IMG/VR virus record: IMGVR_UViG_3300031949_000018
Coordinates: 1-64,000 of that record
Origin: a virus
Taxonomy: Duplodnaviria; Caudoviricetes
Length of the DNA: 64,000 nt
Strand: one strand, 5' to 3'
The notes below the pieces were generated by a model. The model saw only the letters and a list, made by a program, of their open reading frames with translations. It ran no database searches and was not told the DNA's origin. The stretch's first letter is position 1, and every line of letters begins with the position of its first letter. The position numbers and the translations under genes were made by a program. Shown here piece by piece: positions 1,047 through 52,758 of the stretch.

Positions 1047-1122
1047 TGGTTGCGTGGGAGGGACTTGCACCCCCGACCTTCGGGGTATGAGCCCGACGAG
1101 CTGCTTCTGCTCCACCGCCGCG
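1047..1122 (-). tRNA. Initiator-type tRNA-Met(CAT)
   Basis: C1:A72 mismatch, GGG/CCC anticodon stem, CAT anticodon, CCA; acceptor stem irregular. Confidence 0.8.
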
Positions 1123-5412: not shown

Positions 5413-5504
5413 TGGTCCCGGCGCTCGGATTCGAACCGAGACCCAACACCAGTCCGGTGCGGAAGAGTCTATAAATCTCTGGGCCTACGCCTGTGGACGC
5501 CGGG
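5413..5504 (-). tRNA. Atypical class-II-like tRNA, anticodon TAT (Ile?)
   Basis: CCCGGCG/CGCCGGG acceptor, perfect T-arm, CCA, long variable hairpin, loop TT-TAT-AG with A31:A39 mismatch. Confidence 0.6.
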
Positions 5505-34762: not shown

Positions 34763-35431
34763 TTACCAGAGGAGATCGAAATAGCCCTGCATTACCTTAG
34801 AAGCCCTGGCGCGACGGCCATTCCGGTGATCCTCTACGGCGTCGTCGCGAAACCGGTATGTCCTGACCTTGTCGCCCCTCATCCCAGATCCGACCTGGGC
34901 ACTCCTCACCTCATTGGACGCGGTGTTCGCCTCCCTCGACGCCATGTCGTGAAGACGGCGGCGCAGCTCGGTCGTGGCCTCGGCGACGTTCGCCTCCTTG
35001 CTGCGTGACTGAACGGTGACGACTATGTTGGTGGGGGTGTGCGTCATTCTAACCGAGCACTGCTTCTTGTTGCGGTGCTGGCCTCCGGCGCCCGTCCCAG
35101 AGAAGAACTCGACGCGGACATCCTCGGGTCGATACTGAAACTGGACAGACGACGCCTTGACCACCGCCACGGTAACGGTGGAGGTATGGGCCCTTCCAGA
35201 TCTCTCGCTGTCTGGGATCCTCTGGATGCGATGGCCGCCAGCCTCGAACTCTATGCGGGGATCTGCGTCTATGATGGTGGACCAATAACCTGGACGGCGC
35301 TCGGAGCGCTGGCACTCTCAGCCGAATCGGGTGAACATCCTCGAGTAGGCGTCGGCCAACTCAGCCACGAACGCCTTGCTGTCGTCGCCACCCTCGGCGG
35401 CTCGTATCTCGATGGAATATCTCGTCCTCAT
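34763..35431 (-). CDS. RF1-like peptide release factor lacking domain 1, with an in-frame TGA at codon 38 (35318-35320)
   Basis: AGGAG RBS + ATG 35431; IEIRAAEGG..., then TGA, then in frame FEAGGHRIQRIP.SE..GR.HTS, GAGGQH.NK, R..K.RTY.F. Confidence 0.85.
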
Positions 35432-35669: not shown

Positions 35670-35748
35670 TGGCTCCCGGGCCTGGAGTCGAACCAAGATC
35701 TTCCCTCCTTTCAAGGGGAGGGATGCTCTGGCATTGAGCTACCCAGGA
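35670..35748 (-). tRNA. Atypical tRNA with an extended anticodon arm (loop CCTTGAAA)
   Basis: TCCTGGG/CCCGGGA acceptor, T-arm, CCA; 7-bp anticodon stem; D-loop lacks GG. Confidence 0.55.
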
Positions 35749-37028: not shown

Positions 37029-37577
37029 TTACGCGTACTTCCTACGCCTCTTTAGCTTGGCGGCACTGAGGTGCCGTATCTTCCTGTCCTGAGACTCAGA
37101 CCGCTGACGGATCTCCGCGAAGCGATCGGCGCAGAACGTCGCGGCCGGGCTATTCGGCTTGACCATCGGGATCACGTTGCAAGTCCCGGTGATGTAGCCG
37201 ATGGCCTCCTTGATGACGATGTTCGAACCCGCTGACTTGTCGGAGTTGATGTCGAGGTGAACCTCGCTGTGTCGATCCCCGAGTGCGTCGGCGATGCGCA
37301 GGTACATGTCCGCGATCTTGTAGACCTCGTTCATGAGTCGCATCGTCGGCCTGTTCTTGACCTGGTCGAAGTCCCTCTCGCGAGTGACCTCACCGAATAT
37401 CTTGCATCCGCGGCAGCCGTCGTAGTGAACGACGACGCAGATGGCGTAGTCAGCGACCCACTGGCCCCCGACCTTGTGGCGCTCGCTGTCGCCGCCGACG
37501 TAGATCTTCGTCTCGGCGCTCTGGGCGCTAATGAAGGCCTTCACGGCCTCTATGTCCATCTTCCGTCTAAAGTCCAT
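37029..37577 (-). CDS. RNase H-like YkuK/DUF458 family protein
   Basis: IYVGGDS, RLMNEV, EVHLDIN, KP...AA..CAD. Confidence 0.8.
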   Translation of the reverse strand: MDFRRKMDIEAVKAFISAQSAETKIYVGGDSERHKVGGQWVADYAICVVVHYDGCRGCKIFGEVTRERDFDQVKNRPTMRLMNEVYKIADMYLRIADALGDRHSEVHLDINSDKSAGSNIVIKEAIGYITGTCNVIPMVKPNSPAATFCADRFAEIRQRSESQDRKIRHLSAAKLKRRRKYA

Positions 37578-38032: not shown

Positions 38033-38113
38033 TGGCGCGCACGACAGGACTCGAACCTGCATCTGCCTCCAATTACCTCACTCAGGCTTCGCAAGCCTGG
38101 GGGTTACGTGCGC
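38033..38113 (-). tRNA. D-arm-less tRNA-Arg-like RNA (GCG)
   Basis: Acceptor GCGCACG/CGTGCGC, T-arm, CCA; CAGGC-TTGCGAA-GCCTG begins 7 nt after the acceptor. Confidence 0.65.
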
Positions 38114-38115
38114 AT

Positions 38116-38198
38116 TGGACCTCCCGACAGGATTCGAACCCGCGTTTTCAGCTCCGTCTACGTATGATGCGTTCGAAGCGCACCTCGGCTACGGGAGG
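38116..38198 (-). tRNA. D-arm-less tRNA-Arg-like RNA (TCG)
   Basis: Acceptor CCTCCCG/CGGGAGG, T-arm, CCA; GTGCG-CTTCGAA-CGCAT begins 8 nt after the acceptor. Confidence 0.65.
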
Positions 38199-38540: not shown

Positions 38541-38789
38541 TTTGTCTTCTTCGCCGCCCTCTTCAAGATTGCCATGAGGCCCTCCTTCACGAGAACATTC
38601 CTGGCCTCCTCGTCGATCTCAAAATTTATAGTAGCCCCGCCATCCGGCTCATCTACTATCGATATGACTTCTATCTTCATAACTAATTGTCTCCCATGGA
38701 CCTTCGGACCTTAGAATCGAACCGTGCCGTGCCCTACCGGAGTCGAACCGGATTCCCGGGAGACACCCCACGCCAGTGAGGCCTTGACT

Positions 38790-38865
38790 TGGAGTGCTGG
38801 GAGGGAATCGAACCCCCGTAAACCGAGTTGCAGTCGGGTGCGTCGAACCATTCCGCCACCAGCAC
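38790..38865 (-). tRNA. tRNA-Cys(GCA)
   Basis: CT-GCA-AC, U73, CCA. Confidence 0.88.
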
Positions 38866-38970: not shown

Positions 38971-39046
38971 TGGCGCCCACGACAGGACTCGAACCTGCAT
39001 ATAATCGCTTAGAAGGCGACAGCTCATCCGATTGAACCACGTGGGC
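38971..39046 (-). tRNA. tRNA-Arg(TCT)
   Basis: CT-TCT-AA, canonical cloverleaf, CCA. Confidence 0.9.
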
Positions 39047-39086: not shown

Positions 39087-39329
39087 CTATTTTATTATGT
39101 CTGTCGGTAGCTTGACGTACGGCCCCGTGACCTTGACCGCGTTGCGACGGGCCATCTCTATGAGGATCCTGATGTCAGACCCCACTATGTGGTAGTGCCA
39201 GTCGTCCCTAACCGCGTGGTTCCACATCCACTCTAGCCACTCCGACGAACCCGGCGTTGGTGGTTCAGCGTTATATTCGCGATCGACTTTTTTCGCCTTC
39301 ACGAGTTCGTATCCAAAATCCTCAGCCAT
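39087..39329 (-). CDS. Hypothetical protein
   Basis: ORF track. Confidence 0.6.
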   Translation of the reverse strand: MAEDFGYELVKAKKVDREYNAEPPTPGSSEWLEWMWNHAVRDDWHYHIVGSDIRILIEMARRNAVKVTGPYVKLPTDIIK

Positions 39330-39738
39330 CTATTTTCCTTCCTGGCAGGGTGCCGTGATTTCCCGTGTGACTAGGCGCCTGCCAGTCGGCAGGTTTAACG
39401 AGATCGGGCAGCCCTAGTGGGTTAGGTCTCGATTCCTTAACGCCGAGCTGCTTATTCATATTCGCTGCATGAACCCGATCCCAGGCCTTCTCCGAATCGA
39501 TACCGAAGAGATCTAGTGTCCCGATCGCGACTACACAGATATCGATGAGTGCGTCTACCACCTCCTCGGCGTCTTTGTCCTCGACGGCGTCGCCCATTTC
39601 ATTCAACTCCTCGAATATGAAGTTGAGTCGAAACTCAAGGAGCATTTGCTTCTTCTCGTCGTCAAAGTCTGCAACCTTCTCGTGAAAGCCGTAGTGGACG
39701 TGCATGTCGTGAATGTCTTTTACCCAGTCCGTCGTCAT
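39322..39738 (-). CDS. MazG/HisE-like dNTP pyrophosphatase (functional gp56 analogue candidate)
   Basis: EELNE, DALID...V..G, AW..VH.ANM.K, D..KP..W..P. Confidence 0.8.
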   Translation of the reverse strand: MTTDWVKDIHDMHVHYGFHEKVADFDDEKKQMLLEFRLNFIFEELNEMGDAVEDKDAEEVVDALIDICVVAIGTLDLFGIDSEKAWDRVHAANMNKQLGVKESRPNPLGLPDLVKPADWQAPSHTGNHGTLPGRKIDG

Positions 39739-40364
39739 CTCTTCGCTATTCCTTTCATTTTCTCGCCGGCCTTGTCGTTGGCCTCGCGCACCTTGTTCTC
39801 GATGCTCAGCTGGGCCTCCGCCGCGGAGATCATGTCCACCATCTCTGGTTGAAACTTTATCCTAACGCCTCCGTCGAGCGCCACGATCTTCGCCCACTTC
39901 TTCTTGGCGAAGCTCCTTTTCAATCCCTCTTGTTTCCCGATGATGGTTATTCCATCGAGGTGGTCTATTTCGTGCTGCATAACTCGAGAGGTGAAATCGC
40001 TGAACTGCTTCGTCATCGTCGACCCGTTAGGAAGGGTATACCTGAGCCTGATGATGCGGTGTCTCTTTATCTTCAGGAAGAGCCCTGGGAATGTTAGGCA
40101 TCCCTCGACGAGTTCAGTCGTGGCCTCGGACGACGATACGATCTTCGGGTTGTAGAACACCCCGCACGGGTCGGATGCCACCGAGAACACCCTGTATGGT
40201 ATTCCGACCTGCGGTCCCGAGAGGCCTAGGCCTCTCCTGGCCAGCATGGTCTCCACCAGGTTGTTGGCGAACTCTATCGGGTCAAACGGAGGATGGGCGA
40301 AGTCGAAGCCCTGGGCCGCCCGGTAGAGTACTGGATCCGAGTGCGTGACGAGGTCCAGGATCAC
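39735..40364 (-). CDS. def: Peptide deformylase
   Basis: GLGLSGPQVG, EGCLT, QHEIDHLDG. Confidence 0.92.
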   Translation of the reverse strand: MILDLVTHSDPVLYRAAQGFDFAHPPFDPIEFANNLVETMLARRGLGLSGPQVGIPYRVFSVASDPCGVFYNPKIVSSSEATTELVEGCLTFPGLFLKIKRHRIIRLRYTLPNGSTMTKQFSDFTSRVMQHEIDHLDGITIIGKQEGLKRSFAKKKWAKIVALDGGVRIKFQPEMVDMISAAEAQLSIENKVREANDKAGEKMKGIAKR

Positions 40365-40619: not shown

Positions 40620-40907
40620 TTAGTCTTGATATGAATCGTATAGAAGATCGTAGGTCATCTCGAAGACGTCTGGGCTACACGGATAGTACTCCGCCTTCAC
40701 CCCTCTTATTATCCAGTCGCCCTGGACGGCGGTCTGAGTGCCTGAGGACGTCTCGATCTCTAGGTCATTTATACCCGCCGTGGAGGGCATCTTTAGGTGG
40801 CCGTCGCTCATCATGGCCTCTGCTATGGTCGCGTAGGTCTCGTTCTCTCCGTCCCATAGGATGGCCTTGACGATGACGGGCTTCTTGACGTAGTTCAGGA
40901 ACATCAT
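40620..40907 (-). CDS. Conserved phage protein (GDWII.GV..E.YPC motif)
   Basis: Y.KKPV.V.A..W.G and GDWIIRGVKAEYYPCSPDVF..TY. Confidence 0.75.
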   Translation of the reverse strand: MMFLNYVKKPVIVKAILWDGENETYATIAEAMMSDGHLKMPSTAGINDLEIETSSGTQTAVQGDWIIRGVKAEYYPCSPDVFEMTYDLLYDSYQD

Positions 40908-41434
40908 TCTCTCCTTATCGCGGCGACCAGGCACCTGGCCTGGTGCTTAGAGTCGTCCAAGGCCGAGTGATACGTGCCCTGTCTCCCCACAGAGTCAGCG
41001 TCGAACCCAAGGACGTGGTACGCGGTTCGAGTGTCTCGGCACTCCCTAAAGTTCCACGGGGGTTTCTTCCCGAGGAATTCATAGGCCGTCGTTAGGATGG
41101 GAAAGTCGAACGCGGCGCCCTGGCACCATATCGTCTTGGCGCCCGTCTGGTGCCACCACCTGGATAGCTGATCGAGGGCATCTGGCAATGGTTTCTGGTC
41201 AACCTCGACGGCGTCTCTGGCGGCCTGTGACTGCTTCGTCCACCATTCCTCCACTCTCTTCTCGACGACTAGGCCCGCTTCCTCGCAGGAGGACCTGGTG
41301 ACGTTGGAATAGAACTCGTGCTTGAATTCTAGGGGACCGGAGGAGAAGGGATTGAACGACGCGGCCCCGATCGACCTTATGACCGACCAGGGCCTGACGC
41401 CAAGCGTCTCAATATCAATCATCACGTGAAGCAT
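40904..41434 (-). CDS. DEDDh 3'-5' exonuclease (RNase AS-like)
   Basis: MIDIETLG, FDF.IL, RDTRT, H.ALDD. Confidence 0.88.
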   Translation of the reverse strand: MLHVMIDIETLGVRPWSVIRSIGAASFNPFSSGPLEFKHEFYSNVTRSSCEEAGLVVEKRVEEWWTKQSQAARDAVEVDQKPLPDALDQLSRWWHQTGAKTIWCQGAAFDFPILTTAYEFLGKKPPWNFRECRDTRTAYHVLGFDADSVGRQGTYHSALDDSKHQARCLVAAIRRE

Positions 41435-52160: not shown

Positions 52161-52535
52161 TTAGTGTTTGATGACGAGGCCCTCGTAGATCATCGTCGCA
52201 ACGGCCCGCATCTTCTGCCTGGCGGTGTCGGGTTCTACCTCCTGGATCATCTTAGGGATGTAGACCGCCAGCCCGACCAAGAGCCCCTTCAGTGACTTGT
52301 AGCGTATCGTCTTCTTTCCATCCTCACTGATCTCATTGAGCATTTCGACCATGATGGCTATCGGCCCGAGCACGTCGGCGACCCCGTCCTTGAAGAACTG
52401 AAGTGAATCCTCCGGCATCTCCCCTTCTACGTCGTCTGCAAATATCGTCGCTAGCTCGAGGATCTTAACGCGCGCCCACTTGATGTACGCGTCGTCCCGC
52501 TCGTCTGCCAGCATTTGCCTCAGATTGTTTAACAT
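52161..52535 (-). CDS. Helical hypothetical protein
   Basis: ORF track. Confidence 0.6.
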   Translation of the reverse strand: MLNNLRQMLADERDDAYIKWARVKILELATIFADDVEGEMPEDSLQFFKDGVADVLGPIAIMVEMLNEISEDGKKTIRYKSLKGLLVGLAVYIPKMIQEVEPDTARQKMRAVATMIYEGLVIKH

Positions 52536-52758
52536 CGCCGTCTCCCCTATGCACTCCTATGGTTTCACAGCCGACCGGAACGTAGTCGTTGGCTATAATC
52601 TTCGGGCCGCCCAAGATCAAGAGCCGTCCGGTGTTATTCATGTAGATCAAAGCTCTCCTCTTCTTCCAGAAGATAAAATCGTCCGGACTTAGCTCGTCAT
52701 GATCGAAGACGAACCCTTGCCACTCATGGCACTCCTTCCAGTAGAATATGCCCATCAA
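52465..52758 (-). CDS. SP...C family protein 4 (minus strand)
   Basis: FYWKECHEW...LSPDDF...VGCETI resembles the 50458 ORF. Confidence 0.6.
   Translation of the reverse strand: MMGIFYWKECHEWQGFVFDHDELSPDDFIFWKKRRALIYMNNTGRLLILGGPKIIANDYVPVGCETIGVHRGDGDVKQSEANAGRRAGRRVHQVGAR

Follow-up and report, generated by a model that had tools for sequence, protein, structure and literature searches.

A covarying family of phage tRNA-Arg-like RNAs in which part of the D-domain appears to lie 3' of the anticodon arm

Every known bacterial tRNA was said in 2024 to be a cloverleaf (PMC11551756). No phage case appears among the natural non-canonical tRNAs reviewed in 2020 (PMC7609411). D-armless tRNAs are described from mitochondria. 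In metazoan mt-tRNA-Ser(AGY) (PMC4013460), a short connector leads from the acceptor to the anticodon arm, and a longer anticodon helix may make up for the lost arm (structure PMC9427863, as cited in PMC11551756). Mitochondrial D-armless tRNAs have lost the D-loop and the contacts of the D/T elbow, have short variable regions, and work with co-evolved organellar factors. An engineered example, mini HisT, lacks positions 11-25 and needs a pnp mutation for stability; Escherichia coli HisRS, EF-Tu and the ribosome accept this D-arm-less tRNA without adaptation (PMC11551756). Phage tRNAs can also depart from those of their hosts, and they are known to evade anticodon nucleases and retron effectors by sequence changes (PMC10264068, PMC11555353). 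Here, two tandem RNAs, RNA A and RNA B, are analysed. They are encoded at positions 38,033 to 38,198 of a stretch of 64,000 nucleotides (nt), referred to below as the window, which covers positions 1 to 64,000 of IMG/VR record IMGVR_UViG_3300031949_000018, a fragment of a T4-like phage (80.5 kb, GC content 54.5%). As judged from sequence, both are most likely functional phage tRNA-Arg isoacceptors in which the 5' D-strand and the D-loop appear to have been relocated 3' of the anticodon arm, with the 3' D-strand continuous with the anticodon stem. Full-text literature searches found no published description of this rewired fold; one may still exist in print.

The comparison with a canonical tRNA-Arg (RF00005, for instance the gene at 38971-39046) is close at most positions. 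Shared features include the 7-base-pair (bp) acceptor, the discriminator and CCA, an anticodon arm with U33 and A37, Arg anticodons, a 5-bp T stem with a UUCGA loop, U8, a GG resembling G18G19, an A20-like base, and a location in a phage tRNA array. In contrast, the rewired RNAs have no D hairpin after position 9; their candidate 5' D-strand and D-loop come 3' of the anticodon arm instead, and their D-stem equivalent would be continuous with the anticodon stem. The analogy with animal mitochondria, drawn in a first-pass annotation of this DNA, is misleading. Whereas mitochondrial D-armless tRNAs have lost elbow elements and have a short variable region, the phage RNAs keep the GG and TΨC-loop elements of the elbow, equivalents of U8 and A14, and the A20 identity base. 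They also conserve the loop sequence UUCGA and a segment of 22-23 nt, and would work with ordinary bacterial machinery. Mini HisT also lacks a D hairpin, and demonstrates that a bacterial aminoacyl-tRNA synthetase, EF-Tu and the ribosome can work with such a tRNA; mini HisT is artificial, however, while the phage family is natural and conserved, with D elements relocated rather than deleted. Like the evading phage tRNAs, the RNAs sit in phage arrays and have sequences unlike the host's. Those published tRNAs remain cloverleaves with changes in the anticodon loop or elsewhere in the sequence (PMC10264068, PMC11555353), whereas the rewired RNAs change topology.

The tandem RNAs and their relatives

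Both RNA genes lie on the minus strand, as do the other tRNA genes of the region. A 4-nt spacer separates tRNA-Ala(CGC) from RNA A, and 2 nt separate RNA A from RNA B. The first-pass annotation had noted perfect 7-bp acceptors, T-arms and an encoded CCA in both RNAs, and these are indeed seen in the sequence. It had also placed a hairpin with a 5-bp stem and a 7-nt loop 7-8 nt past the acceptor, followed by an extra region of 22-23 nt; the respective lengths are 8 and 23 nt in RNA A, and 7 and 22 nt in RNA B. Both anticodons are of the Arg CGN type, as it stated (UCG in RNA A, GCG in RNA B). The acceptor with CCA, the anticodon arm (5-bp stem, 7-nt loop, U33, purine at 37) and the T arm with its GTTCRA loop are those expected of a cloverleaf, but the D hairpin (10-13/22-25) that should lie between position 9 and the anticodon arm is absent, with just 7-8 nt in its place. 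Neither extra region contains a self-complementary stem of the kind that would make it a class II variable arm. The parts are listed below; R1 is a covariance model and A2-A4 are alignments, which together define the family to which both RNAs are assigned.

38116..38198, minus strand: RNA A, putative rewired-core tRNA-Arg(UCG), 83 nt, 8-nt-linker subfamily (sequence; R1 46.1 bits; gap-free alignment to 22 relatives; covarying stems)
38192..38198, minus strand: acceptor 5' strand of RNA A, CCUCCCG, with its partner at 38120-38126 (7/7 Watson-Crick; all 7 pairs covary in A4)
38184..38191, minus strand: 5' linker of RNA A, UAGCCGAG, 8 nt; C12 and G13 (38187-38186) are predicted to pair with G38 and C37, and G15 (38184) with C33
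38167..38183, minus strand: anticodon arm of RNA A, GUGCG-CUUCGAA-CGCAU, anticodon UCG at 38176-38174 (all 5 stem pairs covary in A4)
38144..38166, minus strand: extra region of RNA A, 23 nt, with connector CAU, strand ACGU at 38163-38160 (putative D-stem-equivalent strand), motif AGACGGAG at 38159-38152 (D-loop-like), then CUGAAAAC; strand and motif are assigned from the parse of 51 members
38127..38143, minus strand: T arm of RNA A, GCGGG-UUCGAAU-CCUGU (sequence, A4 covariation)
38116..38126, minus strand: acceptor 3' strand of RNA A, CGGGAGG, discriminator U and encoded CCA (sequence)
38033..38113, minus strand: RNA B, putative rewired-core tRNA-Arg(GCG), 81 nt, 7-nt-linker subfamily (sequence; at least 13 close relatives; covarying stems)
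38100..38106, minus strand: 5' linker of RNA B, UAACCCC; A10, C11 and C12 (38104-38102) are predicted to pair with U39, G38 and G37, and C14 (38100) with G33
38083..38099, minus strand: anticodon arm of RNA B, CAGGC-UUGCGAA-GCCUG, anticodon GCG at 38092-38090 (sequence, covariation)
38061..38082, minus strand: extra region of RNA B, 22 nt, with connector AGUG, strand AGGU at 38078-38075, motif AAUUGGAG at 38074-38067, then GCAGAU
38033..38060, minus strand: T arm of RNA B (GCAGG-UUCGAGU-CCUGU), acceptor 3' strand, discriminator G and CCA, almost the same as the matching part of tRNA-Arg(UCU)
38971..39046, minus strand: tRNA-Arg(UCU), a canonical cloverleaf and the sole canonical Arg tRNA of the 80-kb record

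The acceptor of RNA B (GCGCACG/CGUGCGC) is likewise 7/7 Watson-Crick, with discriminator G and an encoded CCA. Its 3' part was reported earlier to be one base off the canonical tRNA-Arg(UCU), and the last 30 nt of RNA B are in fact 97% identical to positions 38971-39000. The lone mismatch is balanced in the 5' acceptor strand (GCGCACG versus GCCCACG).

Members of the family have U8-A9 and a 7- or 8-nt linker that pairs with 3-4 nt directly 5' of UAA(N)NGG, located 3' of the anticodon arm. This pairing is ACC/GGU in RNA B and CG/CG in RNA A. Both also carry the motif A-R-(N)1-3-G-G-A, followed by 6-10 nt and the T stem, in the form of AGACGGAG (RNA A) and AAUUGGAG (RNA B). In total, 51 distinct members were parsed, from viral metagenome contigs and three Hyphomicrobiales genomes. 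A blastn search with RNA B found an unannotated ACG homolog straight after tRNA-Asp in Mesorhizobium phage Cp1R7A-A1, with all three stems compensated. Pattern scans of IMG/VR returned 13 distinct close relatives of RNA B, and a scan of GTDB genomes added three members in dense tRNA arrays of Hoeflea, Rhizobium and Pseudaminobacter, which are probably prophages. Further scans recovered the subfamily of RNA A, whose 8-nt linker has the consensus UARCCGNN.

Compensatory change is found in both subfamilies. In the RNA B subfamily (A2, 13 sequences), 97.8% of cells are paired and 15 pairs show two-sided changes, including every pair of the acceptor (7) and of the anticodon stem (5); none of 500 shuffles was as good. 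The RNA A subfamily (gap-free A4, 23 members) has 94.2% of cells paired and 17 pairs with two-sided changes (0/500 shuffles), and the figure for the whole family of 51 is 95.9%. R1 scores RNA A, which is outside its training set, at 46.1 bits (E about 3e-10), and RNA B, which is inside it, at 93.8 bits, while ordinary tRNAs of the same loci reach at most 36 bits. Loop features are nearly constant across the family, with U33 in 50/51, A37 in 51/51, and the T-loop UUCGA in 50/51. The covariance model and phage homolog search, of the kind that the first-pass annotation proposed, yielded more than 50 homologs, and each stem shows compensatory changes among them. This is contrary to the refuting outcome that it had named, an absence of homologs with covarying stems. 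Since more than 50 homologs keep their stems by compensatory change, RNA A and RNA B are not debris, and they almost certainly belong to a real, selected RNA family.

The D-stem equivalent and the D-loop-like motif

Across the family, the extra region consists of a connector of 3-5 nt, a 4-nt strand, and a conserved single-stranded motif. The strand is complementary to the 5' linker bases that adjoin the anticodon stem. The motif, with GGA conserved, reads AAU(U)GGAG in B-type and ARAYGGAG in A-type members. It is similar to AAUCGGAU, the D-loop of the canonical tRNA-Arg(UCU) nearby. To count the pairs of the putative D-stem, the 51 sequences were anchored on the motif and the anticodon stem, with the following results.

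Equivalent of pair 24-11 (second pair; 12-37 in RNA B): CG 24, GC 22, AU 5; 51/51 paired, with switches within both subfamilies
Equivalent of pair 23-12 (adjacent): CG in 50/51
Equivalent of outer pair 25-10: 22/51 paired, five pair types
Equivalent of outer pair 22-13: 15/51 paired
Four-pair block: 67.6% of cells paired versus 49.5% (standard deviation 2.1) when shuffled; 0/2000 shuffles as high

Other alignments give comparable counts. In A4, pair 12-38 is CG in 23/23, pair 13-37 is GC in 20 and AU in 3, and pair 15-33 is formed in 17/23. The model-fitted alignment A3 has CG 29, GC 11 and AU 2 at the equivalent of 24-11, and the member in Salmonella phage Felix O1 has U-A at this pair. In the B subfamily, pair 14-33 (CG 8, GC 2, unpaired 3) is suggestive only. 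A Levitt-like combination of the R15 equivalent with the last base before the T stem is mostly A-U; in the three cases with G15, the opposing base is C once (RNA A) and G twice. A candidate pair joining position 34 to position 10 of the linker was rejected: a few sequences favoured it, but it is broken in L001 and others.

These counts support the reading that the 5' D-strand and D-loop have been relocated 3' of the anticodon arm, and that the 3' D-strand is continuous with the anticodon stem. The canonical numbering of the rewired parts is inferred, and GG would dock on the T-loop. As one of two alternatives, the first-pass annotation had suggested that the extra region takes the place of the D-arm in a new fold. 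This idea is supported, and can now be sharpened to a D-strand and a D-loop-like motif, the former pairing with the linker and covarying with it. Its description of the RNAs as D-arm-less, with no D-stem, does not hold, as the 5' linker and the extra region would together form a D-stem equivalent, paired in 51/51 at one position.

Several observations weigh against this reading. The D-stem equivalent is short, with two solid pairs, and the flanking pairs are formed in just 29-43% of sequences. RNAalifold, run on the B subfamily alone, predicts no D-like helix, because the columns concerned are invariant there; the helix is supported by the family at large. Two further points concern function rather than fold: a few members have Ile or Thr anticodons, so that the scaffold is not strictly Arg-specific, and five of 20 loci with both kinds of Arg tRNA have the same anticodon in the rewired and the canonical gene (L008 is one of them).

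Arginine identity, decoding and rival explanations

The main determinants recognised by the E. coli arginyl-tRNA synthetase (ArgRS) are A20 and C35. RNA A and RNA B both have C35, G36 and an A after the GG, and this A would sit at the spatial position of A20. Anticodons in the family of 51 are UCU (20), ACG (19), UCG (5), GCG (2), GAU (2), UAU (2) and UGU (1), which makes 46/51 Arg. The base after the GG is A in 45/46 Arg members and U in 3/4 members with an Ile anticodon. If ArgRS reads this base, an A in Arg members and a U in most Ile members would be expected, and the Ile-type members with U at the A20 equivalent suggest identity switches away from Arg. The members of Ile or Thr type are located at L006:190-271(-), L043:8598-8678(-), L047:923-1007(-), L058:9678-9757(+) and L031:6330-6412(-), where the L numbers designate loci; GAU and UAU each occur twice among them, and UGU once, with C33.

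Arg codons in this phage are CGU 9%, CGC 25%, CGA 12%, CGG 14%, AGA 13% and AGG 28%, or 33% CGY, 26% CGR and 40% AGR. The anticodons GCG and UCG, together with the canonical UCU, cover all six. At loci with both a rewired and a canonical Arg tRNA, the anticodons differ in 15/20. The same-anticodon loci imply that filling gaps in the tRNA set is not the whole story. Within a genome, the acceptor stems of its rewired and its canonical Arg tRNAs are identical at a mean of 2.9/7 positions, versus 2.35/7 for other tRNAs. General sharing of acceptor stems between the two kinds was not seen. The window, L041 and L053 alone have nearly identical stems, a pattern that suggests occasional local recombination.

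Some loci have unusual sets of Arg tRNAs. At L008:757-832 (-), a cloverleaf tRNA-Arg(ACG) lies immediately upstream of a rewired ACG member. Its D-loop lacks GG and its T-loop is UUAGAGU, which may be a 19-56 covariation; the phage of L008 has two odd Arg tRNAs with one anticodon. On one viral contig, L011 (3326-3496 and 478-558, +), all three Arg tRNAs (GCG, UCG, UCU) are rewired. Its UCG member (L011:3407-3496) has an extra hairpin, GGCC-GUGA-GGCU, in the variable-like segment, and is the sole relative with one.

A pathway can be proposed from these features, in which transcription, processing, an L-like shape, charging by the host ArgRS and ribosomal decoding are all presumed. RNA A and RNA B would be transcribed within the minus-strand tRNA array, with its 2-4-nt spacers, and processed like their neighbours, with CCA already encoded. 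The acceptor and T arms would be standard. After U8-A9, the 5' linker would act as the 3' strand of the D-stem (22-25/26) and run straight into the anticodon stem. Past this stem and a short connector, the strand equivalent to 10-13 would pair with the linker. This would lengthen the anticodon helix, an effect that stacking of the D-stem has in a normal tRNA, and would give one continuous, interrupted helix. The D-loop-like strand (equivalents of A14, R15, Y16/17, G18, G19 and A20), the variable-like segment and the T arm would follow. The elbow would then arise from docking of G18 and G19 on the TΨC loop, and the A20 equivalent, C35 and G36/U36 would provide ArgRS identity. The UCG anticodon of RNA A would read CGA and CGG, and the GCG of RNA B would read CGC and CGU. 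On sequence evidence, we consider it likely that members of the family are charged with Arg and decode.

Why such a fold would be kept is a further question, for which neutral inheritance and evasion of host factors are both possible. Under evasion, functional tRNA-Arg would retain the rewired core to escape host factors that read the geometry of the D-arm or anticodon stem; candidates are tRNA-Arg-directed anticodon nucleases of the colicin D type, further defence effectors that cleave tRNAs, and RNA quality control. This would add to the reading of the RNAs as functional tRNA-Arg, not exclude it. There is precedent in phage tRNAs that evade nucleases or retron effectors (PMC10264068, PMC11555353), but the anticodon loops here are ordinary (CU-NCG-AA) and would leave the site visible to loop-directed nucleases. 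The confinement of the family to phage and prophage tRNA arrays fits evasion, yet is explained equally well by neutral inheritance of one ancestral rearrangement and exchange between arrays. The five loci with a canonical and a rewired tRNA of one anticodon would suit a back-up role, and an RtcB-type ligase in a related Mesorhizobium phage hints at tRNA damage during infection; against this, the analysis tied neither a nuclease or defence system nor a co-occurring gene to the family. Evasion is a tentative proposal, and we regard it as unlikely. We are similarly doubtful of its fullest form, that these are functional elongators with a permuted D-domain, the first natural non-cloverleaf tRNAs for bacterial ribosomes, whose fold is kept to hide from nucleases or quality control that read D-arm geometry while ArgRS identity and the L-shape are preserved.

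Alternatively, in line with the aminoacylatable decoys that the first-pass annotation offered as its second alternative, the RNAs could be tRNA mimics that do not decode, acting as regulators or as decoys or sponges for nucleases or tRNA-sensing defences, and perhaps chargeable though unused by the ribosome. A non-canonical core might not suit EF-Tu or the ribosome, but decoding features are kept throughout (the 7-nt loop, U33 in 50/51, A37 in 51/51). Some genomes do have a canonical tRNA with the same anticodon; more often, however, the sense Arg anticodons complement the canonical set (15/20 loci), and in this phage they complete Arg coverage. The ArgRS identity base also tracks the anticodon, and a decoy would not need the joint upkeep of covarying acceptor and T arms, CCA and identity elements. 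A role as mimics appears improbable.

Standard tRNA finders handle these genes poorly. RF00005, with a gathering threshold of 29 bits in Rfam, fits RNA B at 35.5 bits, only with the D-arm deleted and 19 nt inserted in the variable region, and gives no match to RNA A even up to E = 10. ARAGORN overlooks RNA B and labels RNA A as tRNA-Met(CAT), a call that was rejected since its anticodon stem, as we read it, has only 3/5 pairs and it lacks U33. ARAGORN calls overlap 4/51 family genes, with the wrong amino acid in two. Also rejected was a hidden cloverleaf in which the hairpin would serve as the D-arm and the extra region would hold the anticodon, as the extra regions lack any 5-bp stem. That the RNAs are decayed pseudogenes, recombination debris, or mis-parsed cloverleaf or class II tRNAs, as the tRNA-Met call for RNA A and the recombinant-like 3' 30 nt that RNA B has in common with tRNA-Arg(UCU) might suggest, is very improbable given more than 50 homologs in unrelated phage lineages with stems kept by compensation, the defects of the Met-CAT stem, extra regions unable to form a variable-arm hairpin, and an Rfam alignment of RNA B that requires deletion of the D-arm.

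If RNA A and RNA B are indeed functional tRNA-Arg, the cloverleaf is not the sole wiring acceptable to bacterial aminoacyl-tRNA synthetases, EF-Tu and the ribosome, and the family would offer a natural scaffold for orthogonal-tRNA engineering. Phage tRNA repertoires would also be systematically under-counted, and analyses that match phage Arg codons to tRNAs would need revision.

Cultured phages and genomic surroundings

Members of the family occur only within phage or prophage tRNA arrays. As cultured phages of laboratory hosts carry them, their function as tRNAs is directly testable. Five examples are as follows.

Xanthomonas phage XacN1: AP018399, 47790-47869 (R1 95.9 bits)
Vibrio phage D260: OZ195864, about 66332-66414 (R1 49.5 bits)
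Caulobacter phage Karma: JX100811, about 52459-52541 (R1 41.2 bits)
Salmonella phage Felix O1: AF320576, 25951-26032, anticodon UCU (R1 43.1 bits)
Mesorhizobium phage Cp1R7A-A1: MT188704, 37602-37681 (R1 98.5 bits; in the R1 training set)

All five lack GenBank annotation. A blastn search with one A-type member matched 298 Vibrio and 24 Caulobacter phage records, and among the matches listed for these Vibrio and Caulobacter phages, none has an annotation at the matching place. The family is thus unannotated in Felix O1, phiCbK-like Caulobacter phages, XacN1, Vibrio phages among the matches listed, and Cp1R7A-A1. The last of these also has an annotated 'tRNA splicing ligase' of the RtcB type (L061, from MT188704, 36158-37390; 56157-57389 in the record), and its tRNA-Lys and tRNA-Asn genes are unusually long, at 88 nt.

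The T4-like character of the phage fragment is seen in genes for a Gp23 capsid protein, a UvsW helicase, a family B DNA polymerase, UvsX- and gp41-like proteins, and an alpha-glucosyltransferase. A scan for promoters and terminators around the array gave nothing above shuffles. Between the tRNA arrays lie five further genes with links to translation or RNA, all on the minus strand.

34763-35170, minus strand: RF-1-domain (ArfB-like) protein
37029-37577, minus strand: RNaseH-like protein (PF04308)
39322-39738, minus strand: MazG-like PRA-PH
39735-40364, minus strand: peptide deformylase
40904-41434, minus strand: Rv2179c-like 3'-5' exoribonuclease

Other tRNA-like sequences in the window are also unusual. 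At 5413-5504 (minus strand), a 92-nt tRNA-Ile(UAU) has a long, class II-like variable arm, which is odd for Ile. The same type occurs in several unrelated phage arrays (L005:10774-10865, L009:1891-1984 and L010:41-132), and AUA makes up 20% of the Ile codons of this phage. Just past tRNA-Cys, the stretch 38690-38790 (minus strand) holds two T-loop-like motifs, GGUUCGACUCC and GGUUCGAUUCU, with no tRNA called by any tool. This stretch could be part of a tRNA, or a different tRNA-like RNA. At 1051-1121 (minus strand), beside tRNA-Met (1131-1208), an Rfam tRNA match of 43.2 bits is absent from the ARAGORN output. Finally, the tRNA-Ser(UGA) called by ARAGORN at 35670-35748 (minus strand) is just 79 nt long, which is short for a class II serine tRNA.

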